A DNA stretch of 64,000 nt from Escherichia coli (GTDB lineage Bacteria; Pseudomonadota; Gammaproteobacteria; Enterobacterales; Enterobacteriaceae). Positions within the stretch are counted from its first letter, which is position 1; every line of letters starts with the position of its first letter. Made by a program: the position numbers and the translations under genes. Below, in pieces: positions 9,727 to 38,559 of this stretch. The notes below the pieces were generated by a model. That model made no database searches, was not told the DNA's origin, and saw only the letters and a list, made by a program, of their open reading frames with translations. The stretch is taken from the NCBI RefSeq assembly GCF_001677475.2, contig NZ_CP015229.1, one strand, 5' to 3'.

Positions 9727-9728
9727 CG

Positions 9729-13988: not shown

Positions 13989-13993
13989 TCAAT

Positions 13994-14018: not shown

Positions 14019-14073
14019 ATGCCTCCGGCACCATGAAGCAGACCACGTTTAAATCTGCTTCACAGGTGCTTTT

Positions 14074-14670: not shown

Positions 14671-14671
14671 T

Positions 14672-16418: not shown

Positions 16419-16711
16419 TGGCGATGAAAGAGATCCTCACTGAAGACCGTCGTCTGGTGTTGCTGCGTTCCCTGCTGGACTGTGGCGACAGCGCGAATGA
16501 ATCCGTGTTGCAGACCTGCCTTCAGGCTTATGGTCATAAGGTATCCCGTGATGTGGTGCGCACCCAGCTTGCATGGCTTCGCGAGCAGGGGTTGGTTCGT
16601 CTGTCTGATGTGGGCGGCTGTTACGTGGCTGAAATCACCGGCAGCGGCGAGGATGTGGCAAACGGCCTGTCCAGCGTTCCGGGCGTTAAAAAACCCCGTG
16701 CGAGGGGCTGA
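16418..16711 (+). CDS. Hypothetical protein (97 aa)
   Basis: ORF track; ATG overlapping the previous stop. Confidence 0.4.
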   Translation: MAMKEILTEDRRLVLLRSLLDCGDSANESVLQTCLQAYGHKVSRDVVRTQLAWLREQGLVRLSDVGGCYVAEITGSGEDVANGLSSVPGVKKPRARG

Positions 16712-16713
16712 GC

Positions 16714-17013
16714 ATGGCCCGAAAACTGAAGCCGTTAAGTCGCGGAGAACGGGCCGTCGTGCGGCAACTGGCGTACTGCCTTGTGCTGGCAGATATTGAG
16801 CAAAACGCCATTGTCCGTGCATACGAACAACAGACCGGAAAGCCCTGGAGCCCGGATGCACCGGACAGCCCCATGAAACGCTTTCTGCGGTCATCACCGG
16901 CATGTGCGCGGCTGTGGAAGCTGCTGGGTAAGGATATCCGGTCCGTTCGCGAAGAAATATACGCCGGTCTGAAAACACCGGGAACTGAAGACGGGGGCCG
17001 TCGTGAACCGTAA
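16714..17013 (+). CDS. Hypothetical protein (99 aa); frame stays open in-frame past its TAA
   Basis: ORF track; the same frame continues for about 49 codons after the TAA at 17011-17013. Confidence 0.35.
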   Translation: MARKLKPLSRGERAVVRQLAYCLVLADIEQNAIVRAYEQQTGKPWSPDAPDSPMKRFLRSSPACARLWKLLGKDIRSVREEIYAGLKTPGTEDGGRREP

Positions 17014-17150
17014 AAAGAATCCGATAAGTAAAGCGTCCCGTGATGAACTCCGCCGTCTGGCGCACAACCTGACATGGCGGGAAATCCAGAGCGGCGCGCT
17101 GAAATCTGCATACGAAAGTTTACAGCGTAGTGAGCAACAGGAGGGCAAAC

Positions 17151-17732
17151 ATGGAAAATGAACAACGCCCCACCCGTGGCCGTCTTTCCAAAGTGGATTT
17201 ACTCCCGGACAGCATCCGGGAGCAGTTGCATCAGATGCTGCGGGAAAAGCGGCACACGCAGGAAGAAATCCGCGAAGCCATCAACGCCCTGATTGACGAA
17301 CACAACCTGCCGGAAGAGATGCAGTTAAGCCGGACGGGTTTAAACCGTTATGCCAGCCGCATGGAAAAAGTCGGGGCCAAAATCCGCGCCTCCCGCGAAA
17401 TGGCCGAAGTCTGGGCGGCAAAGCTGGGTTCCGCGCCAACATCAGACGTCGGCAGGCTGCTGATGGAGTTTGTAAAAACGCTGGCCTTTGAAACGTCCAT
17501 GTCGATGGCAGAAGACGACAAACCTGTAGCACCAAAGGCGCTGGGGCAACTGGCGCTGGTTGCCCAGCGTCTGGAAGCGGCAGCCATGACCAGCCATAAA
17601 CGCGAGAAAGCGATCCGCGATGCGTTTGCACAGGAGATGGCTGAGAAAACCGAAGAGCTGGTCAGAACGGGTGGTCTGTCAGGCGGTGCGGCTGACACCA
17701 TCAAACGAGACATTCTGGGGATTAGCGCATGA
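17151..17732 (+). CDS. DUF3486-type protein (Mu gp27-like, putative small terminase subunit)
   Basis: ATG 17151 with AGGAGGG RBS (ORF-track start 17130 is an upstream GTG); N-terminus ...RGRLSKVDLLPDSIREQL typical of DUF3486; directly upstream of large terminase. Confidence 0.6.
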   Translation: MENEQRPTRGRLSKVDLLPDSIREQLHQMLREKRHTQEEIREAINALIDEHNLPEEMQLSRTGLNRYASRMEKVGAKIRASREMAEVWAAKLGSAPTSDVGRLLMEFVKTLAFETSMSMAEDDKPVAPKALGQLALVAQRLEAAAMTSHKREKAIRDAFAQEMAEKTEELVRTGGLSGGAADTIKRDILGISA

Positions 17733-19264
17733 CACAGATGAACACGTTCAGTGAATCCGATGTTCTGCTGCCGTATCAGAAACGCTGGGTGGCGGATGAT
17801 TCAAAACTGAAAATCGCCGAGAAATCACGCCGTACCGGGTTAACCTGGGCGGAAGCGGCAGATGCAGCACTGACCGCATCACTGAAGAAGGAAAACGGCG
17901 GGCGCGATCACTTTTATATCGGTTCGAATAAGGAGATGGCCCGCGAATTTATCGACGCCGTAGCGATGTGGGCGAAAGCGTTTAATGCGGCAGCGGAAGA
18001 AATCCGCGAGGAAGTGATCACCGACGAAGACATGGACATTCTGACGTTCGTCGTGTACTTCGCCAGCGGTTTTAAGGTCAAGGCGCTGTCCAGCAATCCG
18101 GGCAACATTCGCGGGATGCAGGGGAATGTCACCATCGACGAAGCGGCGTTTCATGAAAAACTGGATGAGGTACTCAAGGCGGTCACACCACTGACCACGT
18201 GGGGCGGTAAGGTTCGCCTTATCTCCACCCATGACGGCGTGGACAACCCGTTTAACCAGCTGATTCAGGAGAGCCGCGCAGGCAAAAAAGATTACCGTAT
18301 TCACACCATCACGCTGGATGACGCCTGCAGTGACGGGCTGTACCGGCGTATCTGTCAGGTACGCGGCATGGAGTGGTCACCGGAGGCCGAGGCGGAATGG
18401 AAAGAAGGCCTGCTGCGAAATACCGCCACCCGCGAAGACGCCCTGGAGGAATATTACTGCGTCCCGAAAAACGGCGGCGGCACGTATATCCCCCGCTCAA
18501 TGCGTGAACGTGCAGCCCGTGGCACCGGAAAAGTGTTGCGCTTTACCGGCACACCGGAATTTAACGCACTGACGGAAAGCCAGCGCCGGGCAGATATCCG
18601 GGAATGGCTGGAAACGGTGGTGCGCCCTGAACTGGAAAAACTCCCACAGAACCTGCGCCACTGTCTGGGGGAAGACTTTGCGCGTTCGGGTGACCTGACT
18701 GTGCTGGCCCCGGTGACGGTGAACGACGACACCACCCGCGAGGTGCCGTTCCTGGTTGAGCTTGCCAATGTGCCGTTTAAACAGCAGGAGCAGGTACTGT
18801 TCTGGCTTTGCGATCGTCTGCCCCGTCGTGACGGCATCAAAATGGATGCGCGGGGGAATGGTCAGTATCTGGCAGAACAGGCGGCGGAGCGGTACGGCGA
18901 CGAGGTGGAACAGGTGATGCTGTCCGTGGCGTTTTACCGTGAAAACATGCCCCGTTTCCGTGCGGCGTTTGAAGATGATGAGCTGATCCTTCCGAAGCAT
19001 GAAGACGTGATCAATGACCTCGGGGCCATTCAGTTACTGCGTGGCGTTCCCGGCATTGATGATTCACGAACCAGAGGCAGCGACGGTCACAAACGTCACG
19101 GCGACGCCGCTGTGGCCATTTTCCTGGGCTTCCTTGCCAGTAAAGATGACTGCCACCGTTACGAACTGCACCGTCTGAACCGCCCGGCGAAACCGGAAGA
19201 ACGCAACGCGCGCCGCCAGCTGAAGCTGACGCGCGGCCTGAAAAATGAGGGAGGTTTACTGTGA
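17729..19264 (+). CDS. Terminase large subunit (Mu gp28-like)
   Basis: 511 aa, between DUF3486 gene and portal gene; overlapping stop/start coupling. Confidence 0.7.
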   Translation: MTQMNTFSESDVLLPYQKRWVADDSKLKIAEKSRRTGLTWAEAADAALTASLKKENGGRDHFYIGSNKEMAREFIDAVAMWAKAFNAAAEEIREEVITDEDMDILTFVVYFASGFKVKALSSNPGNIRGMQGNVTIDEAAFHEKLDEVLKAVTPLTTWGGKVRLISTHDGVDNPFNQLIQESRAGKKDYRIHTITLDDACSDGLYRRICQVRGMEWSPEAEAEWKEGLLRNTATREDALEEYYCVPKNGGGTYIPRSMRERAARGTGKVLRFTGTPEFNALTESQRRADIREWLETVVRPELEKLPQNLRHCLGEDFARSGDLTVLAPVTVNDDTTREVPFLVELANVPFKQQEQVLFWLCDRLPRRDGIKMDARGNGQYLAEQAAERYGDEVEQVMLSVAFYRENMPRFRAAFEDDELILPKHEDVINDLGAIQLLRGVPGIDDSRTRGSDGHKRHGDAAVAIFLGFLASKDDCHRYELHRLNRPAKPEERNARRQLKLTRGLKNEGGLL

Positions 19265-20832
19265 ACCAGAAACAACAGGCCGGGGCCGCACGCCGTCTGC
19301 TGAACCCGGCAACCGGTGAGGAAGACACGCTGAAAAAAGAGGCGCTCAACGAAGCACAGGCCCGTCCGCGTCAGGCTGGCGTGCGTCCGGCCTCGCCGGG
19401 CATCAGCATCGCCTCCGGGCTGAATCCCGGCAGGCTGGCAGGCATTCTGCGCAATGCCGCCAACGGTATCACGCGTGATTTTTTTATCCTTGCCGAAGAG
19501 ATGGAAGAACGCGATTTGCATTACGCCTCGGTGCTGCGCACCCGCAAGCTGACGGTGGCGGGTATTGAACCGGTGGTGGTGGCTGCCAGTGATGACGATG
19601 CCGACGTACAGCTGGCGGATGCCATACGTGCGCTGATGGAAGCCCCGCAAATCCCCGAGCTGATGTTTGATTTGCTCGACGGGCTGGGAAAAGGCGTGGC
19701 GGTCTGTGAAATTTTGTGGAACACCCGCAACAACCACTGGGTGCCCCGTGATTATGAGTGGGTTGATCCCCGTTTTCTGAAAGCCGAAAAGCCCACTCTG
19801 CGCCGGTTCCGCCTGCTGACTGACGATGAACCGGTGGATGGCGTACCGCTGACACCGGGAAAATTCATTGTTCACCAGCCGCGTCTGAAATCCGGTCTGC
19901 CGCTGCGTAACGGTCTGGCCCGTCTGGTGGCTGTGATGTATATGCTGAAATCCTTTACCGTGCGTGACTGGTGGGCATTTGCGGAAAAATTCGGCATTCC
20001 GGTTACGGTGGGGAAATACGGTCCCAACGCCACGGAGGAGCAAATCCGCGTGCTGATTGATGCGATTGCCTCCATTGCCTCAGATGCCGGGTGTGCCATT
20101 CCGCAGTCCATGCAACTGGAGATGCAGGAAACCGCCAGCCGGAATAACGGCGGCGCGCTGTTCCGTGAAATGGCTGAATGGTGCGATGCGCAAATCAGTA
20201 AAGCCGTACTGGGGCAGACCATGACCACAGATAATGGCAGTTCGCGTTCACAGGCGGACGTGCACAATCAGGTGCGCATGGACATTGTGCGCTGGGACGC
20301 GCGACAGCTGGCTAACACGCTGAATGAATATCTGGTGCGTCCCTACATCGAGGCCAACTACGGGCCACAGGCGCACTATCCCCGTGTTGTTCTGCGTATC
20401 AGTGAAGCCGAAGATCTGAAGGCGCTGACTGATGCTCTGGTGCCACTGATTGACCGGGGGATGCGGGTTCAGGAATCGGAGCTGCGGGATCGGTTCGGCC
20501 TGGCGGAACCGGACGAAGGGGCTGATGTTCTGCATCCGGTGTCTGCCGGAATGTCAGGTGATATGGCGATGAACCACGAGCGCGTCGCCCTGAACCGGGA
20601 ACACCCCGACGAACTGGCACAGATGGTGGATGATGCCCTGCGTGACTGGCAGAAAACCGGCGAGGCGTTCACAAACCCGGTGCTGACACTGGCGCAGGAA
20701 TGCGACAGTTTTGATGACTTTCTGAAACGCCTGCCTGAGCTTCAGGAAACGCTGAACGCGGACGACTTTGCCCTGCAACTGGCGGAGGTGTGCTTTAAGG
20801 CCCGTGCGCTGGGAGACACTGGTCATGCGTGA
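19261..20832 (+). CDS. Portal protein (Mu gp29/H-like, DUF935)
   Basis: 523 aa; position after the terminase; GTG start overlapping the terminase stop. Confidence 0.7.
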   Translation: MNQKQQAGAARRLLNPATGEEDTLKKEALNEAQARPRQAGVRPASPGISIASGLNPGRLAGILRNAANGITRDFFILAEEMEERDLHYASVLRTRKLTVAGIEPVVVAASDDDADVQLADAIRALMEAPQIPELMFDLLDGLGKGVAVCEILWNTRNNHWVPRDYEWVDPRFLKAEKPTLRRFRLLTDDEPVDGVPLTPGKFIVHQPRLKSGLPLRNGLARLVAVMYMLKSFTVRDWWAFAEKFGIPVTVGKYGPNATEEQIRVLIDAIASIASDAGCAIPQSMQLEMQETASRNNGGALFREMAEWCDAQISKAVLGQTMTTDNGSSRSQADVHNQVRMDIVRWDARQLANTLNEYLVRPYIEANYGPQAHYPRVVLRISEAEDLKALTDALVPLIDRGMRVQESELRDRFGLAEPDEGADVLHPVSAGMSGDMAMNHERVALNREHPDELAQMVDDALRDWQKTGEAFTNPVLTLAQECDSFDDFLKRLPELQETLNADDFALQLAEVCFKARALGDTGHA

Positions 20833-21589
20833 AACCCTCATCCCGAAAGAGGCGCTGGCGTGGCTGAAGGCGAAGAAGCTGCGCCCCGGTTTTGATTACC
20901 GGGATGTGTGGCGGGAAGAACACCGGAACAGCTTCACCGTGGCAAAAATGCTGCAACTGGATTTGTTGTCGGATGTGAAATCCCTTGTGGAAGACGCCCT
21001 GCAAAGCGGGCAGACGTTCAGCGAGTTCCGGGAGATGCTGCAACCGCTGCTGATAAAACGCGGATGGTGGGGCGTACAGGAGATGGATGATCCGCTGACG
21101 GGCGAAAGGCGCACCGTGCAACTGGGCAGCGACCGCCGCCTCCGCACGATTTTTGACACCAACATGCGCACCGCCCGCGCGGCGGGCCAGTGGGAACGCA
21201 TTCAGCGGACAAAGCGGGCCATGCCGTATCTGATTTATGAGCTGGGGCCATCCCGCGAGCACCGGGCGGAGCATGTGAAATGGGCGCGTCTGTGTCTGCC
21301 TGTAGACCACCCGTTCTGGCAGACGCATTTCGCCCCTAACGGCTGGGGCTGCAAATGCACCATCCGTCAGGTCAGCCGTGGTGAGTATGCGCAACTGGCG
21401 GCACAGGGCACCATTCACACCGAAGCGCCGGAAATCAGGACTGTCCGCTGGGTGAACAAACGTACGGGCGAAGAGGAAGAGGTGCCGGAAGGGATTGATC
21501 CGGGCTGGAACTACAATCCCGGTATAAACCGTGAGCAGGAGCTGGCGCGCCAGCTGGCGACAAAACAGGCCCGTTTTGACAGTGAGTAA
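20825..21589 (+). CDS. Head morphogenesis protein (Mu F-like)
   Basis: ATG 20825 overlapping portal stop; position after the portal gene. Confidence 0.6.
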   Translation: MRETLIPKEALAWLKAKKLRPGFDYRDVWREEHRNSFTVAKMLQLDLLSDVKSLVEDALQSGQTFSEFREMLQPLLIKRGWWGVQEMDDPLTGERRTVQLGSDRRLRTIFDTNMRTARAAGQWERIQRTKRAMPYLIYELGPSREHRAEHVKWARLCLPVDHPFWQTHFAPNGWGCKCTIRQVSRGEYAQLAAQGTIHTEAPEIRTVRWVNKRTGEEEEVPEGIDPGWNYNPGINREQELARQLATKQARFDSE

Positions 21590-21726
21590 CCCTCCCGCCG
21601 TAAATCCCCCTGAAACGCATCAGAAACGCGTTTTTTATTCTGATGGCGTGAATGTGCATTCTGACGTTTTTGAAGATGCTGTGGCGTTTTTGAAGGGGTT
21701 TTGAAGGGGGTATTTCCCCGTTTTCA

Positions 21727-21753
21727 GTGAAGCCGGTAAATCCGGCTTTTTTT
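21727..21753 (+). terminator. Second copy of the GAAGCCGG-TAAAT-CCGGCTTTTTTT hairpin
   Basis: Same hairpin plus T-run as at 13994-14018, in the F-to-I intergenic region. Confidence 0.55.
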
Positions 21754-21802
21754 CTGCCTTCCGCATACTGACCGTCGGTAACCCCAGACGACGGAGACTG
21801 AC

Positions 21803-22758
21803 ATGCAACCGGAACTGCTGGCGCTGTGTTTTTCCCTGCCAGAACCCATCCCTGAGCTGACACCTGCTCAACTGCCGGAATGGCTCGAACTTGTCCCTGC
21901 GGGTGAGTTCACCGGCGCGATGGCCGGACGTGGATTAACCGCAATCCGCATGAGGTGGTTGCCCGTTCGTCCGGCATCAAAATTCCGGTGGATATTGAAC
22001 ACGCCACCGAAATTAAAGGCCCGCGTGGTGAAGATGCTCCGGCGTATGGCTGGGTGGAAGAACTGCGGGTGACGGACAGCAGCACCATTGAAGGGCGTGT
22101 TGTCTGGAGCGAGTCCGCCCGCTGGATGCTGAGCGAGCGCCGCTACCGCTATTACAGCCCGGCGTTTTTCTTTGACGCGGAAGGCGTAGTGACGCGCCTG
22201 TCCAGCGTCGGGCTGACCAACAAACCTAACCTGGATTTTCCTGCACTGAATACGGAGAAAAACCTGATGACAGTACCTGTGCAAATCACCGGCCTGCTTG
22301 GGCTGGCTGAATCTGCCACGGTGGACGATACCGTGGCCGCCATTAAACAACTTCAGGAGAACGAACAGGTGGCGCTGAACCGCGCACAGACACCTGATCT
22401 GACGAAGTTTGTGCCGGTGGAAACCCACAATCTGGCCCTGAACCGTGCCGAAACCGCAGAACAACGCCTTCAGCAACTTGAAGAGAAGGAAGCAGAAGCG
22501 CTTGTGGATGCGGCCATCGAAGCCGGAAAAGTGGCCCCGGCAAACCGTGACATGTTCCTTGCCACCTGCCGCACGGAAGAAGGCCGCAAACAGTTTGCGG
22601 AGTACACCAGAGGCGCACAGCCGCTGGTGAACAACGACAAGCCCAGCCAGGGCAAGGATAAACCCGCGCAGACACTGACCGACACCGAACTGGCGATGTG
22701 CCGCAGCATGGGTATTACCGGGGAAGAGTTCCTCGCCGCTAAACCGAAACAGGAGTAA
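21803..22758 (+). pseudogene. Head protease/scaffold (Mu I-like) with an apparent -1 frameshift near 21915
   Basis: N-terminal part (...LPEWLELVPAGEFTG) is in one frame (ORF 21803-22072), the rest (RDGRTWINRNPHEVVARSSGIKIPVDIEHATE...) in the -1 frame (ORF 21955-22758); joined by one missing base after ACCGG at about 21914. Confidence 0.55.
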
Positions 22759-22765
22759 GTAACAC

Positions 22766-23701
22766 ATGTCACAGACTATCAGTTCTGAAATCCTTCATGC
22801 ACTGACCACCTGCCTGAGCGCCGCCTTTACCCGTGGACTGAGTGGTGTCGAACCGCAGTGGAATCGTATTGCTTCTGAGGTGCCGAGTTCGTCCGCCTCC
22901 AACACCTACGGCTGGATGAAAGATTTACCGGACATCAAAGAATGGGTCGGTGAGCGTCAGCTGGCAACGCTGGACGGTTATGGTTACACCATCACCAACA
23001 AACTCTGGGAAAGTTCCATTCGCGTTAAGCGCGAACACATTGAAGATGACCAGATAGGTCAGTACAGCATTACCGCCGAACGCTATGGCCGTATGACTGC
23101 TGTGTTCCCGGACAAGCTGTGTTACGCCCTGTTGTGTGCCGGGTTTAACACCCTGTGCTTTGACGGCCAGAACTTCTTTGATGAAGACCACCCGCTGGGC
23201 GACGGCACCTACAGCAACGTTGTCGGTACACCAGGAACGGACCAGGGCGAACCGTGGTTTCTGATTGATGAGTCGCAGGTGCTGAAACCCATCATCTGGC
23301 AGACGCGACGCGCCTTTAAATTTGAAGCCCTGGACGATCTGAACAGCGAGCACACCTTCAAGAACCACGAGTTCCTGTACGGCGTGGACGGTCGCTGTAA
23401 TGCGGGCTTCGGCTTCTGGCAGACCGCCGTCGGTTCCGTGCAGCACTGACGGTGGAGAACTACAAAAAAGCCAATGAGTTGCTGCGGGGCATGAAGGCAC
23501 CAACGGTGAGCCGCTGGGCATCCGCCCGACCACCCTTGTGGTGGGGCCGAAAAACCGTGCGGACGCGAAGCTCATTATTGACGCCATGCTGGTTAACGGC
23601 GGCGATTCAACATCTGGTACAAGGATGTGGAGATCGTGGACAGCCCGTACATCACACCGCTGGCAATAACCCGTCATCGCGTATCTGTAACCCGCAGTTA
23701 A
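22766..23701 (+). pseudogene. Major head subunit (Mu T-like) interrupted by three apparent single-base deletions
   Basis: Protein-like translation continues through three frame changes: ...AVGSVQ / (A)LTVENYKKANELLRGMK / GTNGEPLGIRPTTLVVGPKNRADAKLIIDAMLVNGGDS / NIWYKDVEIVDSPYITPLAITRHRVSVTRS*, shifting at about 23443, 23497 and 23608. Confidence 0.55.
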
Positions 23702-23751
23702 AAGGCGCTGCGAATGCCCTTTTAACTGCCTTTTAAAAGGCAGAGTCATGA

Positions 23752-24060
23752 GTGAAAAAAGCAGGAACCAAAGGCGCGAAAGCCGCAAAGAACAGCGCTG
23801 CACAGGAAAACCCGGCACCGCTGGCAGACGTTATTGTGGCTGACGGTCAGGCGAATGAACCACGTCCGGCTGAAGACCCGGTTGCTGTACAGGGTGACGC
23901 CCCTGTCCGGCTGAACGTCCGGGCCGTGTCTGAAAACGGGTTCTGGCGCTGTGGCCGTTTCTGGTCACATGCCGGTGAGAATGTGGCGGTGATCGCTGCG
24001 GTTGCCACCCGCCTGATGGCAGAGCCGAATCTGATTGTCCGGGAAGCGGAGAAAGGCTGA
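23752..24060 (+). CDS. Hypothetical head-region protein (102 aa)
   Basis: ORF track (GTG 23752); an upstream ATG at 23748 is out of frame by one base across an A6 run, so the start is uncertain. Confidence 0.4.
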   Translation: MKKAGTKGAKAAKNSAAQENPAPLADVIVADGQANEPRPAEDPVAVQGDAPVRLNVRAVSENGFWRCGRFWSHAGENVAVIAAVATRLMAEPNLIVREAEKG

Positions 24061-24497
24061 TGGGGTACATCACGCAGGAAGACCTGTTACGCGCGGACGG
24101 CAATCTTGTCTGGAACATGGCGATTAACCGGGAAACCAACGGGCTGGACGAGGACAAAATCCGTCAGGCCATCAGTGATGCCGAAGCGGAAATTGATTCG
24201 TTTCTGTCCCGCCGCTACCAGCTGCCGCTGGGAGTGACGGAAATCCCGCGCCCGCTGCAACGCGTGGCAGTATCGCTGGCGTTTTACTGGTTGTCAGAGC
24301 GTGACAATCAAATCACTGAGCTGATCCAGAAACGCTACGACGACGCCATTAAAACCCTGCGTGAGATGGCGAACGGCACCCGTGACCTGGGTCTGCCGAC
24401 GTATGCCACCCCGGCAGAAACCGACCACGGGAAGATCATTGTAGTGGGTGCCAATGCCCGGCTGTTCACCCGTAACAACCTGAAAGGGGTGCTGTGA
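24060..24497 (+). CDS. Head-tail connector-like protein (Mu gp36-like, DUF1320)
   Basis: 145 aa; position after head genes; overlapping start/stop with neighbours. Confidence 0.45.
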   Translation: MGYITQEDLLRADGNLVWNMAINRETNGLDEDKIRQAISDAEAEIDSFLSRRYQLPLGVTEIPRPLQRVAVSLAFYWLSERDNQITELIQKRYDDAIKTLREMANGTRDLGLPTYATPAETDHGKIIVVGANARLFTRNNLKGVL

Positions 24498-25039
24498 TGG
24501 GGATTTCTGTACAGGTCAGCGGTGACCAGCGTCTGGAGGATATCCGCCGCGCCGTTGAAAAGCTGGCAGATGGTTCATTGCAGGCAGAGCTGCTGGAAAG
24601 CATCGGTGCGGTGGTGGAATCACAGACCCGCCGCCGCATCATCGATGAGAAAACCAGTCCGGGTGGCGAACGCTGGCCGGACTGGTCTGACGGGTACAAA
24701 AAGACCCGCCACGGCAACCAGAGTCTGCTGCGCGGTGAAGGCCATCTGCTGGAGAGTATCCAGTACATCGTGGAAAACCGTGTGGTGCGTATCGGTTCAC
24801 CGCTGGATTATGCCCGCATCATGAATGACGGCTTTTCCGGCAGTGTGCCGGTCAGCGCCCACAAACGGCTTATCTCGCAGTGTTTCGGGCGGGCGCTGAA
24901 ATATCCGGTCTGGCAGACCGTCGGCGCACATAACCGCATGATGAACATTCCACAACGTGAATTTCTGGGGCTGTCTTCTGCCAACCAGCAGGAGCTGCAA
25001 CAGGTTATCAGTCATTTCTGGAAGGAGGTTCTGCCATGA
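24494..25039 (+). CDS. Virion morphogenesis protein (Mu G-like / tail completion)
   Basis: 181 aa; gene order and size. Confidence 0.45.
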   Translation: MMGISVQVSGDQRLEDIRRAVEKLADGSLQAELLESIGAVVESQTRRRIIDEKTSPGGERWPDWSDGYKKTRHGNQSLLRGEGHLLESIQYIVENRVVRIGSPLDYARIMNDGFSGSVPVSAHKRLISQCFGRALKYPVWQTVGAHNRMMNIPQREFLGLSSANQQELQQVISHFWKEVLP

Positions 25040-25647
25040 CAGAACAACGCCCTGAACTGCGCACACCGGGGAGCACCGTTGCGGCCGCAGAGCGCATTGT
25101 GGCCTGGCTGAAAACAGCACTTCAGGGGAAAACCCCTGACCGGGCCGACGTGGTGGAGCGTCACATCGGCCAGTTCAACAGCCCGGAAGAAGTGAAGCGC
25201 TATCTGTCCGGTCGTACCGGCTGTATCCGGGTAGCTGCCCTGCGTGTCCGGGATATCAACCCGCGCGGCGGGCTGTCCGGTCTGGTCACCTGGGTGGCTT
25301 ACATCATGGCAACGGATTCGTGGGGGTATTCCCGCGACGTGCGCTGTGAAGTGCTGGCCGAAAAGGTGATCAAACGCCTGCTGTCGTCGGATGCCACAGC
25401 GGGCATGGGGGCTGAACGCATGGCCGCTGATGTGCGGGCAGACAACATTTACTCCGCCAGCCTCGACGGGCTGGGTGTCACCATGTGGGCGGTGACGTGG
25501 GAGCAGGAATTTCAGCTGGATGAAGAGATTGATCTCGCCGCGCTCCCGGACTTCCTGCGCCTCGGAGCGACGCTGCGCAGCGGTGAACATACTGAGATTA
25601 ACGACGTGATCCATGTACGGGGTGACGATGGAACAGAAACTGATTAA
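25036..25647 (+). CDS. Hypothetical virion protein (Mu gp37-like)
   Basis: 203 aa; AGGAGG RBS; position before sheath. Confidence 0.4.
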   Translation: MTEQRPELRTPGSTVAAAERIVAWLKTALQGKTPDRADVVERHIGQFNSPEEVKRYLSGRTGCIRVAALRVRDINPRGGLSGLVTWVAYIMATDSWGYSRDVRCEVLAEKVIKRLLSSDATAGMGAERMAADVRADNIYSASLDGLGVTMWAVTWEQEFQLDEEIDLAALPDFLRLGATLRSGEHTEINDVIHVRGDDGTETD

Positions 25648-25831
25648 GCCAGCGCGGGAAAACGTCCGTGTCCGTAAACCGGATGGCGCGCATTTATCCC
25701 CGGAAGGGGAACGTCTCGACGTCGGGGCGTACTGGCGACGTCGTGAAGCCGAGGGGGATGTGGTGATTGCTGATGTTCCGGCAGAAACATCCCTCCCTGA
25801 AACCAAAAATCAGAAACGAAAGAGGAAGTAA
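25628..25831 (+). CDS. Small hypothetical protein (DUF2635-like)
   Basis: ATG 25628 (ORF-track start 25613 trimmed); Lys/Arg-rich C-terminus. Confidence 0.35.
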   Translation: MEQKLIKPARENVRVRKPDGAHLSPEGERLDVGAYWRRREAEGDVVIADVPAETSLPETKNQKRKRK

Positions 25832-25835
25832 ATCT

Positions 25836-27311
25836 ATGTCGCTGGGTTCAATTCCTGATGATATCCGCGTCCCGCTCGTCGTGATCGATATTGACAATTC
25901 ACAGGCGCTGGACAGTGCATCCGCGCAAAGCCGAAAAATTCTGGTCATGGGCCATGCGGTATCGTCCGGCAGCGCAGACGCCCTGTCACTGACCCGCATC
26001 ACCAGTGACAGCCAGGCAGAGCAGCTTTATGGCAAAGGGTCTATGCTGGCTGAAATGCTCAAAATACTGCGTCGTGCCAACACGTACACGGAAACCTGGG
26101 CAATGCCGGTTGCCGCACCTGTTGGCGCTGCCGCAAAAGCCACGCTGACCGTGCTGGGGACAGCAACAGAGGCCGGAACGGTGGCACTACTGATTAACGG
26201 TGTCTCCGTTCAGGTGGGCGTGAGCGCCGGGGATACCAAAGAAAACATTGCAAAAGCCATTGCTGATGCGGTGACGAAAAAGCCTGCCACGCAGGTGGCC
26301 GCTGCGGTGAAGGATGATGCCACGGATACCGTGGAGCTGACCGTGAACTGGCACGGCGTCACCGGCAACGGTGCCGACGTTCGCCTGAACTACTACACCG
26401 GTGAAGCCTTCCCGGCAGGTGTGAAGGTGACCGCAACCGCGTTTACCGGCGGCACCGGGACACCGGAAATGGCAGACGCCGTTGCGGCCATCGGCCCGGA
26501 GTGGTTTACCGATATCATCGCCCCGTTCACCGACACGCAAAGCCTGAACACCCTGCGTGATGAACTGCTGAACCGCTGGGGGCCGCTCAGGATGATGGAA
26601 GCGCAGCTATGGACGGCGTTTCGTGGCACGCACGGCGAGACAGGCACGTTTGGTGAAACCCGCAATGACTGGCTGATTAGCTGTATCGGCACCAACCTGT
26701 CACCGCATCCGGCGTGGATGTGGGCCGCGTCATACGGCGCAACGGCAGCGTATCACCTTGCCATTGACCCGGCGCGTCCGCTTCAGACGCTGGTCCTGAC
26801 CGGCATTCTGCCGCCTGCGCGTAATGTTCGCTGGGATATGCCGGAACGTAACCTGCTGCTGCATGACGGCATTGCCACGCACATGGTGGACGCCGGGGAT
26901 AACGTCTGCATAGAGCGTGAAATCACCATGTACCGGGTTAATCAGTACGGTGATGCGGATGTGTCGTACCTGGATGTGCAGTCGCCCGCCACGCTGGGCC
27001 GTATCCGTTACATCATCAAAAACCGTTTCTCGAACCGTTATCCGCGCCACAAGCTGGCGGATGATGACGTGCTGGACTCGCTGGATGCGGGGCAGCCGGT
27101 GATGACGCCGAAGCTGTGCACCGCAGAGCTGCTGGATATCTGCCAGACCGAACTTATCCCGGCAGGCCTTGTGGAGAACTTCAGCGATTACAGGGACACG
27201 CTTCAGGTGACACGCGACAGCAGCGATAAAAACCGCCTGAACTTTATCTGCCACCCGAATCTGGTGAACCAGCTGCGTGTGCTGGCAGGCCTGATTCAGT
27301 TCAGAGTTTAA
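25836..27311 (+). CDS. Tail sheath protein (Mu L-like)
   Basis: ATG 25836 with AGAGGAAG RBS (ORF-track start 25767 is upstream alternative); about 491 aa immediately before the tube gene. Confidence 0.7.
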   Translation: MSLGSIPDDIRVPLVVIDIDNSQALDSASAQSRKILVMGHAVSSGSADALSLTRITSDSQAEQLYGKGSMLAEMLKILRRANTYTETWAMPVAAPVGAAAKATLTVLGTATEAGTVALLINGVSVQVGVSAGDTKENIAKAIADAVTKKPATQVAAAVKDDATDTVELTVNWHGVTGNGADVRLNYYTGEAFPAGVKVTATAFTGGTGTPEMADAVAAIGPEWFTDIIAPFTDTQSLNTLRDELLNRWGPLRMMEAQLWTAFRGTHGETGTFGETRNDWLISCIGTNLSPHPAWMWAASYGATAAYHLAIDPARPLQTLVLTGILPPARNVRWDMPERNLLLHDGIATHMVDAGDNVCIEREITMYRVNQYGDADVSYLDVQSPATLGRIRYIIKNRFSNRYPRHKLADDDVLDSLDAGQPVMTPKLCTAELLDICQTELIPAGLVENFSDYRDTLQVTRDSSDKNRLNFICHPNLVNQLRVLAGLIQFRV

Positions 27312-27320
27312 GGGGGCCGC

Positions 27321-27677
27321 ATGGCAAAAATTCTTGGCATGGCGACCATTCGCGTGAATGGCCGCGAAATTAAAACCGAGGGGAAATCCACGCTGAATCC
27401 GGGCGGCTTCAGCCGCACCCAGCATATGGGCGGCGGCAAGGTCTGGGGTATCTCCAGCAAGATGGCCTCGCCGTCCATCAAGGTGACCATTGCGGCAGCA
27501 GCGGATATGGACGTGATTGAAATCAGCAGCTGGGAAGATGTCACGGTGATGTTCTACGGCGACAACGGCCTGAACTACATGATGACGGGGTCCGCCACGG
27601 ATAACCCGGCGGAGCTGGACGAGGATTCCGGCACCATCAGTGCGAACTTTATCGGTGAAAAATGCGTGAAGGTGTGA
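27321..27677 (+). CDS. Tail tube protein (Mu M-like)
   Basis: 118 aa directly after the sheath gene. Confidence 0.65.
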   Translation: MAKILGMATIRVNGREIKTEGKSTLNPGGFSRTQHMGGGKVWGISSKMASPSIKVTIAAAADMDVIEISSWEDVTVMFYGDNGLNYMMTGSATDNPAELDEDSGTISANFIGEKCVKV

Positions 27678-27678
27678 C

Positions 27679-28074
27679 ATGGCTGAAATGACATTTGAAC
27701 TGAAACACGGGCTTCTGACCGGCAAAGGCACGGCAGATGAAACCCTGCATAAAACCGTGAAGCTGCGCGAGCTGACCGCCAGCGACGTGATTGATGCACA
27801 ACTGGCCGCAGAACGTGTGGTACTGGGCGAGAACGGAAAGGCGGTGGCCTACTGTTCTGAAGTGCTGATGGGGCTGGAGATGATGCGCCGTCAGGTTGCG
27901 TCCATCGGCAACATTCCCGGCCCGCTGGACATGAAACTGCTGCGAATGCTCCACCCGACAGACCTTGAGCTTATCAGCACCAAAGCTGCTGCGCTGGATG
28001 AAATGCTTGAGGAGGTGGCAACTCGGGGGCGAACTGATGCCGCTGGCGGCGGCACTGATGAACCTGCTGGTTAA
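27679..28074 (+). CDS. Tail assembly chaperone (Mu gp41-like); C-terminus may continue in the overlapping +1 frame 27965-28174
   Basis: 131 aa between tube and tape-measure genes; Gly/Ala low-complexity tail in this frame while overlapping ORF 27965-28174 looks more protein-like. Confidence 0.45.
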   Translation: MAEMTFELKHGLLTGKGTADETLHKTVKLRELTASDVIDAQLAAERVVLGENGKAVAYCSEVLMGLEMMRRQVASIGNIPGPLDMKLLRMLHPTDLELISTKAAALDEMLEEVATRGRTDAAGGGTDEPAG

Positions 28075-28160
28075 CCTGTCTCAGCGATTCAGCATTCAGT
28101 ACCTGGAACAGCTGCCCCTGTGGCAGCTGTTCCGTCTGATAAAGCAACTGGAGAAACAGC

Positions 28161-30026
28161 ATGGCAACAGGTAACCGTCTCAGCACGGAAATCATGATCA
28201 ACCTTGCCGGGAACCTGACCGCCAAAGCCCGGCAGTACGGCGCAAATATGTCGCAGTTCGCGCGTAATCATCAGAAGGCAATGAATCTGGTCAAAGCCAC
28301 AACGGAATCTGCCACACGTGGCCTCGATGTGCTGGGTAACCGCTACACGGCGATGGTTGCCGGTTTTGCGGGTAGCGCCATGATGCGTGAGTTTGCGCAG
28401 GTGGATCGCCGGATGACCCGTATTGGTATTTCCGCAGAAAAGACGCGCGACGAAATGGCGCAGATGCTGAATGGTATTCAGGACGCCGCCATCAAATTTA
28501 AGGTTGATGACAGTGAACTGATAAGCGCGGTGGAAAAAGTTGGCACCGTGACGGGTGAGATTAATTTTGGTTTCAAAAACAAGGAGATGATGGCGGCATC
28601 CATCGCCGCTTCCGGAAGTTCAGGGGAAGCCATCGGCTCGCTGTTTTCTCAGTTTACGAAGTTCGGGATTAAGGATGAAAACGATGCCTTAAAGGCAATG
28701 GATACCCTGAACCTGCTGGGAAAAGAAGGTGCCTATGAACTGAAAGACATCGCAGAAAAAGCAACCCGTGCGATGTCGCTGTATTCCGCTGCGGGCGGAC
28801 GTGGTGTGCAGGGTGTCAGGGATGTTGGGGTTGTGCTTGAATCTGCGATTGATGCAACCGGAGATCGGGATACTGCGGCTACAGTAGTAGAAAACCTTAT
28901 AAAAGATTTGCAAAAAACAGGAACCGTAAAGGTTCTTAAACACAATGGCATTAACGTATTCGATAACGAAGGAAATATGCGTTCATTGCCCCTTCTTCTT
29001 CAGGAGATTGCCGCACGCTCCGGAAGTAAAGGTACAGAAATACAATCCCAACGGCTGGATGAAGCCGGGTTTCTTGATGATGCAACAATGTTAATCAAAG
29101 CGGTAACCTCAGGCAAAGGCGCAGAAAACCTGCAACGTTATATGAAGGTTACAGGTGATGGAAAAGGCATCATGAAGGATGCCGCATATGCTGCACAGGA
29201 TTTTACGTCGGCCATGCAGGCGCTGGAAACCAGCTGGAAAAAATTCTCCCACCATCAACTGGCAAAACCCGTTCAGGACCTGGCTGATGCCATCAACAGC
29301 GTGGACCAGAACACCGTCCAGAACTGGTTGCAGGTCGGTAAATATATGGCGATTGCTGTGGGCGGCATTATCGCCATCAGAAAAACGTACCAGTTAGGTA
29401 AAACCCTCCACGACATCATGAATCCCAAAGGGAAAGGCAAAGGAATACCCGGCGGCATTACGGATGTTTTCGGCTCCGGCGTGATGCCGGTTTATGTGGT
29501 CAATATGGGCAGTGGCGGGATGAATGGTAATACCGGCGGTCTGCCGGATACACCGGATTCATCGCGCAATCCCCGCAATCCTCGGGGTCCGGGTAACCGT
29601 GGAGGAAAGGCAGGTAAAGGCGCTGGCATCATTGCCGGTGCTCTGGAGTTTTACGATTTTCTGACCACACAATACGCCCTGCCGGGTGAGGTTGACAGTC
29701 TCACTAAATCCGTTGCCGGTGATGCCAGCGCCAGCCCGTGGGAGCGCGAGTTCGCGCAACAAAGTCAGGACAACCAGAAAGCGCTCGAGTCCGTCTGGCG
29801 TAAGGTAACGGACTGGTTCAACTCGCTGGGTGACAAGAACATTGCCGACCCGCGACCGTGGGCAGGTATGCAACCCACACAGAATTATCCTTTCCTTCCG
29901 CAACAATTGCAGGGGGAAATCCGTGTGGTGGTGGAAGGTGACGCCCGCGTGAAAAGTGTCAGAGTGGATCAACCCGGCGTCAGACTCAGTGCGCAGGCTG
30001 GCGTCACCAGCGTGGAGCAAGGGTAA
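28161..30026 (+). CDS. Tail tape measure protein
   Basis: 621 aa, helix-rich with Gly-rich C-terminal region; between chaperone and baseplate genes. Confidence 0.65.
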   Translation: MATGNRLSTEIMINLAGNLTAKARQYGANMSQFARNHQKAMNLVKATTESATRGLDVLGNRYTAMVAGFAGSAMMREFAQVDRRMTRIGISAEKTRDEMAQMLNGIQDAAIKFKVDDSELISAVEKVGTVTGEINFGFKNKEMMAASIAASGSSGEAIGSLFSQFTKFGIKDENDALKAMDTLNLLGKEGAYELKDIAEKATRAMSLYSAAGGRGVQGVRDVGVVLESAIDATGDRDTAATVVENLIKDLQKTGTVKVLKHNGINVFDNEGNMRSLPLLLQEIAARSGSKGTEIQSQRLDEAGFLDDATMLIKAVTSGKGAENLQRYMKVTGDGKGIMKDAAYAAQDFTSAMQALETSWKKFSHHQLAKPVQDLADAINSVDQNTVQNWLQVGKYMAIAVGGIIAIRKTYQLGKTLHDIMNPKGKGKGIPGGITDVFGSGVMPVYVVNMGSGGMNGNTGGLPDTPDSSRNPRNPRGPGNRGGKAGKGAGIIAGALEFYDFLTTQYALPGEVDSLTKSVAGDASASPWEREFAQQSQDNQKALESVWRKVTDWFNSLGDKNIADPRPWAGMQPTQNYPFLPQQLQGEIRVVVEGDARVKSVRVDQPGVRLSAQAGVTSVEQG

Positions 30027-31300
30027 TGACAACGAGCAAAGGCAAATGGGACGGGCTGCGCGATGCCTCGTTTCGCGGCGTCCCCTTCTTTCTGGTGGAT
30101 ACGGAAGGCACCGGTGGCCGCAGGGCTATTCCCCGTGCTTATCCCCGGCGTGAAACCGCCTGGACGGATGATAACGGGGCCGTTCCGGGGCAACAGCAGA
30201 TTAACGCAAAGCTGCCAGGTAAAAACTTCCAGGATGATTTAAACGCCCTTTTAGACGCGCTCAATACCCCCGGCCCCGGCGAGCTTATCCACCCGTGGTT
30301 CGGGATACAGACCGTACAGGTTGGCAAGGTCACCCATCGCCTCAGCACGGAGGAAGATGGCATTGCATATGTCACCTTTGAAGTGTTTGAGGCAGGCGAG
30401 CGCCTGTTCCCGTCTGCGGCGGATAACACGCAGCAGGAGGTGCTGACAGGCATTGATGTGGTAAAAGCGGCCATTGATGCTGGCGACTGGTTCAGTGTAC
30501 CTGACGGGCTGGGTGATATGGCCGACAGCTTTCTGGCCGATATGGAAAACCTTGTGGCTAACCTGCCCACGTTACCGGCAGCACTGAATCAGTGGATGGA
30601 CAGGCTGAACCATTTTAAGGAGATGGCCGGAACCATTATTGCCATGCCGGGACGTCTGGTCAGTGAGCTGTCCTCGTTCATCGACGGCGTGGTTGATCTG
30701 GTGACGGAACCACCCGAAGCACTGGCGGTTTACACGACATTACACAACCAGTGGGCCGGAGAACGCGCCCGACAGGTTGCCACCGGCGCACTGCCGGAAG
30801 ATATCACCGTGAAGCCCGGCAGCGTGGCAGACGGCGAACCTGGCTTTGCTATCGGGTTGTCACCGGGTTATCAGCCGGTGTCTGACAGCCTGCAAAAGAA
30901 CATTGACGACTTCCGCCTGGTGGTTGTGCTGGAAACCCTGCTGGGACAGGCAAATGCCGTGGCCTCGATGACGTTCGATACCAGTGACGCGGCATTATCT
31001 GCCGGTGACACGCTGGCGGCTGAACTGCATGAGCAGGCGGTGGCGGCGGTGGAAAATAACCAGCGGGCATTGTGGCGAACGCTGCGCGATTTACGGCAGG
31101 CCGTGATTACGGATGCCCGCGAGCGCGCCGCCCGTCTGCCGGAAACCCGGCAGGTGACGCTGACCACAACCACATCTGCCGCATTGCTGGCATGGCGCGA
31201 GCATGGGGATACAAGCCGACGGGATGAAATCGTGCAGCGTAACCGCCTGCGCCATCCGTCATTCATTCTGCCAACGCAACCTGTGGAGATTACCGACTGA
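30026..31300 (+). CDS. DNA circulation protein (Mu N-like)
   Basis: 424 aa; position after the tape measure, as in Mu. Confidence 0.6.
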   Translation: MTTSKGKWDGLRDASFRGVPFFLVDTEGTGGRRAIPRAYPRRETAWTDDNGAVPGQQQINAKLPGKNFQDDLNALLDALNTPGPGELIHPWFGIQTVQVGKVTHRLSTEEDGIAYVTFEVFEAGERLFPSAADNTQQEVLTGIDVVKAAIDAGDWFSVPDGLGDMADSFLADMENLVANLPTLPAALNQWMDRLNHFKEMAGTIIAMPGRLVSELSSFIDGVVDLVTEPPEALAVYTTLHNQWAGERARQVATGALPEDITVKPGSVADGEPGFAIGLSPGYQPVSDSLQKNIDDFRLVVVLETLLGQANAVASMTFDTSDAALSAGDTLAAELHEQAVAAVENNQRALWRTLRDLRQAVITDARERAARLPETRQVTLTTTTSAALLAWREHGDTSRRDEIVQRNRLRHPSFILPTQPVEITD

Positions 31301-32370
31301 TGGGATCCGTGATTCTTACCGTTGACGGCAAACTGTGGGAAGGCTGGACGGAAATGTCTGTCAGTCGTTCCCTGAAGGCGATTGCCGGTGAGTTTGAGCT
31401 CAGTGTAACAACCCGCTGGTCATCGGCGGCACCGCGCGTGATTCGTGAGGGGCAACCCTGCACGGTCAGGCTGGGTGCAGATACCGTGCTGACGGGGTAT
31501 ATCGATGATTTTATCCCCAGCTATGACGCAAACAGCGTGGAGATTCGCGTCATGGGGCGCGATAAAACCGGCGACCTGGTGGACTGCTCTGTGGTGCATT
31601 CGTCCGGGAAATGGAAAGGCGTGCGGCTTGAACAGGTGGCGGCTGATGTCTGCCGCCCGTTCGGGATAACCGTCATCACGGAAAACCCGACCGGGGAGGC
31701 GTTTGCGTCCGTTGTTCTGGAACAGGGTGAAACGGGTTTTGAACTGCTCGACCGGCTGGCAAAACAGCGCGGCGTTCTGCTGACGTCTGACGGGGCGGGT
31801 AATCTGATTATCACCCGCGCCTCTTCCGTTCGCGCGGGCGTGTCACTGGTGCTGGGAAAAAATATCCTCGCCGCCCGTGGGCGCTTCAGCTGGCGGGAGC
31901 GTAACAGTCAGTACATCATCAAGGGCACCACCAGTGCCGGTGGCAGAGTGTGGGACAGCCAGCCTGCCCCGATGGTGGGCGGTCGCCAGTACATCATCGA
32001 AGACTCTGAAATTAACCGTTACCGTCCGCGCATTCTGGTCAATGAAGACAGCCTGACCGTGGGCGGGGCCAGCATTCGCGGAGAATGGTATAAAGCCCGG
32101 ATGCTGGGAGAGGCCCGCACGACGGAAATCACGGTGGCAGGCTGGCGCGAACAGGGCGACAGCGGTCCGCTGTGGCAGACCAACCGCCTTGTCGATATCG
32201 ACGACAGCATTCAGAACCTGAAAACCACCTGGCTGATATCCGGGGTGACCTGGACGGATGGCGCACAAGGGCGGATGACGGTTCTGGCGCTGGTTCCGCC
32301 TGAATCACTGGATATGCCGGAAATGAAAGCGAAGACGAAGAAAACAAAGGCGGTGGCCACATGGGATTAA
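31300..32370 (+). CDS. Tail/baseplate hub protein (Mu P-like, late control D-like)
   Basis: 356 aa; gene order. Confidence 0.55.
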   Translation: MGSVILTVDGKLWEGWTEMSVSRSLKAIAGEFELSVTTRWSSAAPRVIREGQPCTVRLGADTVLTGYIDDFIPSYDANSVEIRVMGRDKTGDLVDCSVVHSSGKWKGVRLEQVAADVCRPFGITVITENPTGEAFASVVLEQGETGFELLDRLAKQRGVLLTSDGAGNLIITRASSVRAGVSLVLGKNILAARGRFSWRERNSQYIIKGTTSAGGRVWDSQPAPMVGGRQYIIEDSEINRYRPRILVNEDSLTVGGASIRGEWYKARMLGEARTTEITVAGWREQGDSGPLWQTNRLVDIDDSIQNLKTTWLISGVTWTDGAQGRMTVLALVPPESLDMPEMKAKTKKTKAVATWD

Positions 32371-32897
32371 ACGCCATTGCCCGCCGTCTGCGACTGATGG
32401 TTGACCGTGCCATTGTCCGCATGGTGTCTGACAGTCTGGAGCGGCAGAACCTGCAAATCCAGACGCTGGCAGATGCCACCGACGACGACGTGGAACGCTT
32501 CCAGAACTACGGTTTTACATCCGTGCCGCCGGAAGGTTCTGAAGCCATAGTGCTGGCCGTTAGCGGGCGGCGTGACGGGCTGGTTGCCATCGCGGTGGAG
32601 GACAAGCGATGTCGCCCGAAAGGGCTGTCCCCCGGCGACGTCCGGCTGTATCACCAGGACGGCAAATCACATATCACGTTAAGGAAAGGCGGAATTATTG
32701 AAATCACAGGGGAACAATTAAACGTTTCAGGGAAAACGGTAAATCTCACCGCCGACGAATTACTGGCTATAAATGCAGGAAATATGAAATTCGTCGGTCC
32801 CTGTGAGTTTACTGAAGATGTCAGAATCAACGGCAAATCTTTCAGCGAACACATTCATAAGGACGGCGACAATGAGAATACATCACCGCCCGTATGA
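32361..32897 (+). CDS. Baseplate assembly protein V-like (spike; Mu gp45-like)
   Basis: 178 aa; gene order within baseplate cluster. Confidence 0.55.
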   Translation: MGLNAIARRLRLMVDRAIVRMVSDSLERQNLQIQTLADATDDDVERFQNYGFTSVPPEGSEAIVLAVSGRRDGLVAIAVEDKRCRPKGLSPGDVRLYHQDGKSHITLRKGGIIEITGEQLNVSGKTVNLTADELLAINAGNMKFVGPCEFTEDVRINGKSFSEHIHKDGDNENTSPPV

Positions 32898-33346
32898 CGA
32901 CAGGAATCCGCTGGAATAACATGCTCTCACGGGGTGACATCACCGTCACCCATAACGGCCTCTCACTGGATGAGGGGCTGGTCACTCAGGTTCTTATCTG
33001 CCTTTTCACCGATGCCCGTGCTGATGACGATGATGTCATTCCTGATGGTTCCGGCGACCCGCGCGGATGGCCGGGCGACACGTACAGCGATTTTTCGTGG
33101 GGTTCCCGCCTGTGGCTGCTTGAGCGCGAAAAACTGACGGAAGATGTCCGCCTGCGCGTGGAAGACTACGCGCGGTTGTCCATGCAACCGCTGCTGCGGG
33201 CCGGTTACGCCCGTAACGCCACCGTCACGGCCAGAATCATCGTCCCTGACCGTATTGCCTTTCAGGTGGTGTTAACCCGCCCGGACAAAACCACGCTCAC
33301 AATTGAAATCACCCGCCGATGGGAGGCCACCATTAATGCCGTATGA
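32894..33346 (+). CDS. Baseplate protein (Mu gp46-like)
   Basis: 150 aa; gene order. Confidence 0.5.
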   Translation: MTTGIRWNNMLSRGDITVTHNGLSLDEGLVTQVLICLFTDARADDDDVIPDGSGDPRGWPGDTYSDFSWGSRLWLLEREKLTEDVRLRVEDYARLSMQPLLRAGYARNATVTARIIVPDRIAFQVVLTRPDKTTLTIEITRRWEATINAV

Positions 33347-34981: not shown

Positions 34982-34984
34982 TTT

Positions 34985-35764: not shown

Positions 35765-35778
35765 TTAAGGAGAAAATA

Positions 35779-38545: not shown

Positions 38546-38559
38546 TGAGGAAATCAGGC

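Follow-up and report, generated by a model that had tools for sequence, protein, structure and literature searches.

Clustered head-gene indels and a conserved Mu-type frameshift site in a Mu-like Escherichia coli prophage: consensus errors as the probable cause of the cluster

Background

In one Mu-like prophage of Escherichia coli, several head genes and the tail chaperone gene can be followed as proteins only across changes of reading frame. Does such a cluster record the decay of a prophage, an imperfect sequence, or a mode of expression? The window, i.e. the whole stretch of 64,000 nucleotides analysed here, had been described in an earlier note which listed six frame changes between head gene I and the chaperone gene. 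That note treated all six as one group and offered two causes, decay restricted to the head module or sequencing errors of homopolymer type. We wondered which of these causes agrees better with the sequences of related genomes, and if all six sites indeed belong together.

Results

The prophage and its repeated head module

The affected genes reside in a Mu-like prophage (Table 1) with repressor, transposases A and B, Gam, Mor, lysis genes, terminase, portal, F, I and T, along with tail genes, tail fibres and com/mom-like genes. On its left side a plasmid/P1-like match ends at 5152. On the right, the chromosomal vgrG region resumes at approximately 40203, and a Mu-type right end, ...CGCCGCTTCA, is located at 40204. 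A target-site duplication is missing.

The head and early-tail module is common to two Mu-like prophages and occurs twice in the lineage. In related draft genomes it is a collapsed 14-kb exact repeat. One complete stand-alone contig of 14,011 bp (L036 of GCA_033692315.1) corresponds to the whole module, and another contig of the same assembly (L017) is 100% identical to window positions 27402-31820, which belong to the tail. Two types of the prophage, with tape measures of 621 aa (as in the window) and 615 aa, part at 13349 and 27401. The cluster of frame changes in the head genes lies 8.5-10.4 kb inside this repeat, not exactly at its centre.

Protein accessions indicate that the source chromosome (5,498,453 bp) carries a second Mu-like prophage with identical head genes; this copy is deduced from the accessions and not from its DNA. 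The two prophage copies correspond to proteins ANO88873-88878 and ANO89022-89032. Terminase is present twice on the chromosome in identical form (ANO88873.1 and ANO89022.1), and ANO88876.1, ANO88877.1 and ANO88878.1 are the exact intact I, T and 103-aa proteins, respectively.

Table 1. Features of the prophage discussed in the text (window coordinates)
Feature	Position	Strand	Alteration or basis
Mu-like (transposable) prophage	5155..40204	+	approximate ends; gene order and annotation of relatives
Head and early-tail module, 14-kb exact repeat	13371..27379		contig matches in related drafts
Gene I, head protease/scaffold, Mu-like_Pro_N	21803..22758	+	one G missing after 21913 (GGG -> GG)
Gene T, major head subunit, Mu-like_gpT	22766..23669	+	three missing bases, last codons garbled
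Garbled 28-bp stretch, T stop codon and 3' flank	23655..23682	+	alignment
103-aa gp35/HI1506-like gene	23748..24060	+	extra A in run 23755-23760 (A5 -> A6), codons 3-4
gp41-like tail assembly chaperone, 131 aa in zero frame, intact	27679..28074	+	exact protein on 20 contigs
CGG_GGG_CGA, putative slip site	28024..28032	+	same nonamer, same frame in all relatives and in phage Mu gp41
48-codon extension ORF, +1/-2 frame	28028..28174	+	extension peptide conserved in all relatives

Head genes are interrupted by indels found only in the window

All six frame changes exist, each at most 8 nt from where it had been placed earlier. To characterize them, the window was aligned with four complete E. coli genomes and with 17 near-identical assemblies. 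Five of the six proved to be indels that no other sequence in these alignments shares. The comparison with orthologous genes that the earlier note had called for gives a uniform picture: at each head-gene site relatives carry the intact base, which restores a single frame. Klebsiella phage Kp4866-3 (L001) was also tried for comparison and, with 70% identity, was too distant to help.

In gene I, the frame is broken at codon 38 of 318. Translation of the repaired gene is exactly ANO88876.1 (protein P0046), and Pfam PF10123 is assigned to the identical relatives. The reading frame of gene T as written ends at 23449, after 227 of 301 aa; the intact 301-aa T is encoded on the same chromosome (ANO88877.1). 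That each frame change in T reflects one missing base holds true, the absent bases being C after 23435 (CCC -> CC), G after 23495 (GGG -> GG) and C after 23607 (CC -> C), but the garbled stretch around the T stop codon had been overlooked. Here, five indels and one substitution separate the window from every relative, even from those that are ~96% identical overall.

A further shift had been suspected in the A6 run at 23748-23755. The extra A is real, but it need not disrupt the 103-aa gene, because translation from a GTG at 23752 stays in frame and gives a product of 102 aa, present in GenBank as ANO89025.1 (P0016). The intact 103-aa form (P0022, ANO88878.1) is found on the same chromosome and on at least 16 other contigs. 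Six single-base edits are sufficient to restore the 318-aa I, the 301-aa T and the 103-aa protein.

Further, we examined how far the differences extend. Compared with the 17 independent near-identical assemblies, the window displays ten single-base indels and one substitution, the same 11 differences against all of them, and all 11 are situated within 1,843 bp (21913-23755). The same set recurs against more distant complete genomes, among which the best match in the RefSeq complete E. coli set reaches 96.6%. The closest assembly, GCA_043014985.2, is identical to window positions 10769-32757 (22 kb) except for the ten indels and one mismatch, and the ~20.1 kb compared outside the cluster show 0 differences. 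GCA_025810455.1 shares a 100% identical chromosomal flank as well as the tail (0 differences in 5,977 bp and 11,071 bp, respectively). Between 10769 and 38074, no other uncompensated indels were detected relative to close relatives. By a scan-statistic approximation of our own, n·f^(n-1), the chance that all 11 random differences fall in one 1.84-kb span of 22 kb is ~2e-10.

Finally, the products of the altered genes were looked up as exact proteins. The 267-aa and 102-aa products are found on the source contig only, and the 227-aa and 89-aa fragments are on no contig. In assemblies with a 100% identical tail, head contigs are intact wherever they were retrieved, although a variant copy might go unseen where repeats are collapsed.

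Origin of the head-gene cluster

We consider it very likely that the head-gene cluster consists of consensus errors, arisen in sequencing or assembly of one repeat copy, and not of lesions left by prophage decay. This reading is favoured because the differences are almost exclusively indels, are clustered, include a garbled 28-bp stretch, lie in a repeat and occur in one assembly only. Most of them affect short runs (GGG -> GG twice, CCC -> CC, CC -> C and A5 -> A6, in addition to the 28-bp scramble), and their location coincides with a long repeat of the same genome.

Such errors might have arisen as follows. In the interior of a 14-kb repeat few reads would be uniquely placeable, and one copy may therefore have been left with a poorly supported, indel-rich consensus, in which too few or too many bases would be called in short G/C and A runs and a stretch of 28 bp would be scrambled. 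The true I, T and 103-aa genes of the affected copy would then most likely be intact, like those of the second copy and of all other assemblies.

The pattern resembles residual indel errors in long exact repeats of finished assemblies, which are likewise dominated by indels, fall in short runs, cluster together and appear in one record; here too, a 14-kb repeat is present twice and the flanks are free of error. It differs from them in that most affected runs are only 2-3 nt long, shorter than classic homopolymer-error sites, and in that one of two copies is apparently affected. It should also be kept in mind that very recent real mutations would predict intact genes in close relatives as well. 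Illumina assemblers can pop small bubbles, and collapsed draft contigs do not strictly exclude a frameshifted copy.

Of the two causes originally offered, errors are the one favoured, while decay of the head module fits poorly with a 10:1 spectrum, ~20 kb of clean sequence and a 14-kb repeat. Still, the prophage might be genuinely defective, one Mu-like copy having really gained frameshifts in I, T and the 103-aa gene. It would then form no heads unless the second copy supplied identical proteins in trans. As written, the frames are indeed broken relative to intact orthologues, and GenBank apparently holds no I and T proteins for the affected copy: the ANO numbering from 89022 (terminase) to 89025 (102-aa gene) leaves room for portal and F only. 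Related prophages, e.g. RM9088, have frameshifted or interrupted genes, and a redundant second copy would render the loss harmless. Nevertheless, we regard a genuine defect as unlikely. In E. coli, substitutions arise by spontaneous mutation several times as often as indels, and lesions from neutral decay would be spread along the whole prophage. What is observed instead are ten indels to one substitution, all in 1.84 kb of a ~35-kb prophage, and zero substitutions in ~20 kb around the cluster. The six changes packed in 28 bp look like base-calling noise. Moreover, the variant products occur in no other assembly, even though several assemblies of the same lineage are in the collection; a variant copy could be concealed by collapsed repeats. 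Defective or cryptic Mu-like prophages such as RM9088, with its frameshifted and IS-interrupted genes, share with our case the disruption of structural genes in the deposited sequence, whereas here the changes are confined to 1.8 kb and are accompanied by no substitutions elsewhere, IS elements or deletions.

Quite improbable, in our estimation, is that the indels are real and stem from a localized burst of almost purely frameshift mutagenesis in one copy of the duplicated head module. If the two 14-kb copies recombined or took part in gap repair, error-prone synthesis would be a possible cause, as would targeted inactivation of a redundant prophage. If true, such a burst was not accompanied by substitutions elsewhere.

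Programmed recoding in I and T, by ribosomal frameshifts or transcriptional slippage, has practically no credibility and was rejected on account of intact orthologues and the intact second copy. Capsid genes of some phages do contain programmed frameshifts (reviewed in PMC5009743), and the three -1 shifts in T add up to -3, which brings back the original frame. In all relatives, however, I and T are each one uninterrupted ORF with the extra base at each site, and some of these relatives match the window at every other base. In T, a stop codon is reached four codons after the first shift, and GG or CC dinucleotides carry no slippery motifs.

If the cluster indeed consists of consensus errors, as we favour, the I and T "pseudogenes" of the record should not be taken as evidence of a defective or decaying prophage. 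Where Mu-like prophages are duplicated, finished assemblies would then be liable to local indel errors.

The frame change in the tail chaperone gene is of a different kind

The sixth site had been grouped with the head-gene indels, which proved to be wrong: no base is missing there. At the G5 run (28025-28029) the reading frame does change, by +1 in frame terms, but no indel is involved: relatives, without exception, and phage Mu agree with the window at this site in sequence and in ORF layout. The chaperone protein (P0031) has the Pfam domains PF23746 Gp41_Mu and PF10109. The nonamer CGG_GGG_CGA is identical in all 20+ relatives and is found in phage Mu gp41 (position 10958 of L025). Genes are arranged in the order tube (27321-27677), chaperone, extension ORF and tape measure (28161-30026), and the same order is found in relatives. 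The extension ORF ends 14 nt inside the tape-measure gene, and Mu has a 51-codon ORF at the same position.

Judged by analogy with phage Mu, from which the slippage is deduced, this frame change is the documented programmed -2 ribosomal frameshift of Mu. A documented programmed frameshift had been named in the earlier note as an observation that would speak against its indel interpretation, and one of Mu gp41 type is present at this site. In Mu, the -2 frameshift giving gpGT is documented, with an efficiency of ~2.2% (PMC5009743, PMC3498833). Low-level production of a fusion protein by -2 slippage, required for tail assembly, is known for Mu itself (PMC3498833, PMC5009743). By the same scheme, most ribosomes would finish the 131-aa gp41-like protein, while a few per cent would move two bases backwards on CGG_GGG_CGA as the Gly tRNA pairs anew with GGG. 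The slipped ribosomes would read 48 more codons, which would yield a longer fusion protein for tail assembly, as is the case for lambda gpG/gpGT.

Could the site instead represent a +1 frameshift, or a sequencing error after all? Both +1 and -2 shifts lead to the same frame, so sequence alone cannot separate them, and a G5 run is a plausible site of error. An error is nonetheless excluded, because no relative differs in sequence here and Mu has the same nonamer; as for the direction of slippage, the literature gives -2 for Mu (PMC5009743, PMC3498833). Taken together, we find a +1 shift or an error at this site highly improbable. Neither the head-gene cluster nor the chaperone site is new biology.

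The resemblance to Mu gp41 and its extension, the functional counterpart of lambda gpG/gpGT and of P2 E/E+E', concerns several features. Both systems are located between tail tube and tape-measure genes, possess the Gp41_Mu domain and have CGG_GGG_CGA in the same frame; in both, a +1/-2 extension of ~50 codons runs as far as the beginning of the tape-measure gene. The extension ORF described here would be the counterpart of the T part of lambda gpGT. On the contrary, sequences of chaperone and extension differ from those of Mu, the extension has 48 codons compared with 51, and the distance from slip site to zero-frame stop amounts to 16 codons here and 9 in Mu.

The chaperone site appears to add one more clear case to the rare Mu-type -2 programmed frameshifts. 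Conservation of CGG_GGG_CGA between Mu and a divergent family of E. coli prophages is useful for annotation. In relatives, the 131-aa ORF alone is annotated, sometimes together with a 45-aa "hypothetical protein".

Disrupted reading frames in the head genes

Window 21500-24100 was aligned with related prophages from four complete E. coli genomes (93.8-96.6% identity). Relative to all four, single bases are missing only in the window after 21913 (GGG to GG), 23435 (CCC to CC), 23495 (GGG to GG) and 23607 (CC to C), and an additional A is present only in the window at 23665 and again in the run 23755-23760. Across the late region 13986-35380, these are the only uncompensated single-base indels with respect to the more distant relative RM9088. 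Reversing the six indels restores a 318-aa I protein (protease/scaffold), a 301-aa T protein (major head subunit) and the 103-aa product of the gp35/HI1506-like gene that follows T, all collinear with the proteins of the relatives. Frame changes flagged in these three genes by the earlier note are thus present, as seen in both the ORF list and the alignments.

Features of the prophage and its surroundings (gene I, T and 103-aa gene entries from the ORF list)
Feature	Position	Remark
Mu-like transposable prophage	about 5155-40204	
Gene I fragment, 89-aa ORF	21803-22072	
Gene I fragment, 267-aa ORF	21955-22758	
Gene T as written		stop at 23449 after 227 codons; remainder over two other frames
Gene after T (103-aa protein)		A6 run at start
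Tail chaperone, 131 aa	27679-28074	overlapped by +1-frame ORF 27965-28174
Type VI secretion cargo island	40606-48415	directly right of prophage
Putative T6SS immunity lipoprotein	40606-40962	cargo island
VgrG	41184-43178	cargo island
150-aa ORF		cargo island, listed between VgrG and Rhs
Rhs core protein, 1,571 aa	43700-48415	cargo island; 62% G+C
ISAs1 transposase, intact	49576-50712	beyond the island
ISAs1 transposase, truncated	51890-52372	beyond the island

Exact-sequence look-ups retrieved essentially the same prophage from 17 independent assemblies, which comprise GenBank drafts and sequencing runs assembled by Logan. The closest, GCA_043014985.2, is identical to window 10769-32757 (22 kb) except for 10 single-base indels and 1 substitution, all of which fall between 21913 and 23755; the identical set of 11 differences was found against each remaining near-identical assembly. 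Six of the 11 are packed in 28 bp (23655-23682), where all relatives read CACCACCCCGGCATAACCCGTCATCCGTAATC and the window reads CACACCGCTGGCAATAACCCGTCATCGCGTATC. Against the draft GCA_025810455.1, chromosomal flank (5,977 bp) and tail genes (11,071 bp) show 0 differences each; the record is accurate outside the cluster.

Two draft contigs, L030 (GCA_029619415.1) and L036 (GCA_033692315.1), match the window at all but the 11 cluster positions; their gene table shows only a 14-aa call in place of the 103-aa gene, probably a gene-calling quirk. Relative to RM9088 and another more distant relative, FDAARGOS_943, the portal gene of the window carries 12 extra bp in frame (19527-19538), and indel-rich variable patches occur at 25768-25830 (DUF2635/sheath junction) and 28910-29102 (tape-measure gene). 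Since near-identical assemblies have them too, these represent genuine natural variation, unlike the error cluster.

A second prophage and a 14-kb repeat

The 102-aa and 267-aa products of the window (ANO89025.1, WP_251597828.1) occur on one contig only, 5,498,453 bp long, while the 227-aa and 89-aa fragments had no match in any protein collection looked up. The same contig encodes repaired I (exactly ANO88876.1), intact T (ANO88877.1), the intact 103-aa protein (ANO88878.1) and two terminase accessions (ANO88873.1 and ANO89022.1). The source chromosome therefore carries two Mu-like prophages with identical head proteins, about 147 genes apart judging from protein accessions. In the window copy terminase is numbered 89022 and the 102-aa gene 89025, with space between them for portal and F only, so that I and T apparently lack a protein entry; they seem to have been annotated as pseudogenes.

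GCA_033692315.1 has the head module on a contig of its own (14,011 bp), equal to window 13371-27379, and a second contig that is 100% identical to window 27402-31820. Prophage types with 621-aa and 615-aa tape measure diverge at 13349 and 27401, and the head-module contig stops about 22 bp short of these points at either end, a pattern characteristic of short-read assemblers collapsing an exact repeat. The cluster is situated 8.5-10.4 kb into this 14-kb repeat.

Complete E. coli genomes with this prophage family number 50 out of 5,426, and some of them contain 2-3 copies; Mu-like prophages in multiple copies, with the assembly problems that follow, are therefore not rare.

Origin of the cluster

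Near-identical intact genes do not decide the question, because they are expected for both recent mutations and errors. In spontaneous mutation of E. coli, substitutions are several-fold commoner than indels; the cluster holds ten indels to a single substitution. No substitutions were found in about 20 kb surrounding it in comparison with near-identical assemblies. Clustering of the 11 differences has a probability of about 2e-10 (simple scan approximation), and the 28-bp scramble is typical of consensus with poor support. Moreover, a long exact repeat extends to both sides of the cluster, leaving few uniquely placeable reads there. On these grounds, consensus errors within a single copy of the repeat are the very probable cause of the differences. 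Of the two options in the earlier note, homopolymer-type errors are thereby favoured, and decay of the head module is at odds with the absence of substitutions around. A genuinely frameshifted prophage copy is improbable; if it existed, the intact second copy, whose I and T proteins are identical, could complement it. For I and T, programmed recoding is ruled out: all relatives have single ORFs, and in T a stop codon comes four codons past the first shift. As consensus errors, the cluster is not a biological feature, and the I and T "pseudogenes" should not be taken as a sign of prophage decay.

A predicted programmed frameshift in the tail chaperone

The frame change reported earlier in the tail chaperone reflects a real overlapping +1-frame ORF but is not an indel: no base is missing at the site in comparison with relatives, all of which have the same 131-aa ORF and the overlapping ORF, the latter appearing in some annotations as a hypothetical protein of 45 aa. 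The upstream 131-aa protein contains the Gp41_Mu domain. Its zero frame reads ACU CGG GGG CGA at 28021-28032, and the 3' end of phage Mu gp41 (GAA CGG GGG CGA) contains the identical nonamer CGG_GGG_CGA in the same frame. In the +1/-2 frame, prophage and phage Mu alike have an ORF, 48-51 codons long, that runs as far as the start of the tape-measure gene. The site matches a known programmed frameshift, reported as -2 for phage Mu, and is conserved across the prophage family; slippage here, whether -2 or +1, is predicted by analogy. The mechanism is already known, and the prophage adds a further Mu-family member to it; the chaperone fusion is worth annotating in these prophages.

Prophage junctions and neighbouring chromosome

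Prophage genes are ordered as repressor, transposases A and B, Gam, Mor, lysis genes, terminase, portal, F, I, T, tail genes, fibres and com/mom-like genes. With ends taken as TG at 5155 and ...CTTCA at 40204, a matching 5-bp target-site duplication is absent at the junctions (ATATA at 5150-5154 on the left, GCGAT at 40205-40209 on the right). The flanks also differ in kind, phage-plasmid-like DNA on the left and a chromosomal vgrG island on the right. The mismatched 5-bp flanks and the phage-plasmid-like left flank could result from recombination between two Mu-like copies, or the assembly may have taken a wrong route across the 14-kb repeat.

Window 1-5152 is 97-99% identical to E. coli plasmids of about 96-100 kb, which account for 526 of 540 matching places and encode a lytic transglycosylase and hypothetical proteins; they may be P1-like or SSU5-like phage-plasmids. 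Here the segment is chromosomal and abuts the left end of the prophage.

To the right, identity of the core stretch 56000-64000 (narZ-narH-narW, yddE, nhoA region) to the 5,426 complete E. coli genomes in RefSeq reaches at most 96.4%, whereas adjoining 51658-57634 is 100% identical to the draft GCA_025810455.1. Compared with complete E. coli genomes, the lineage or its 56000-64000 region is therefore unusually divergent.
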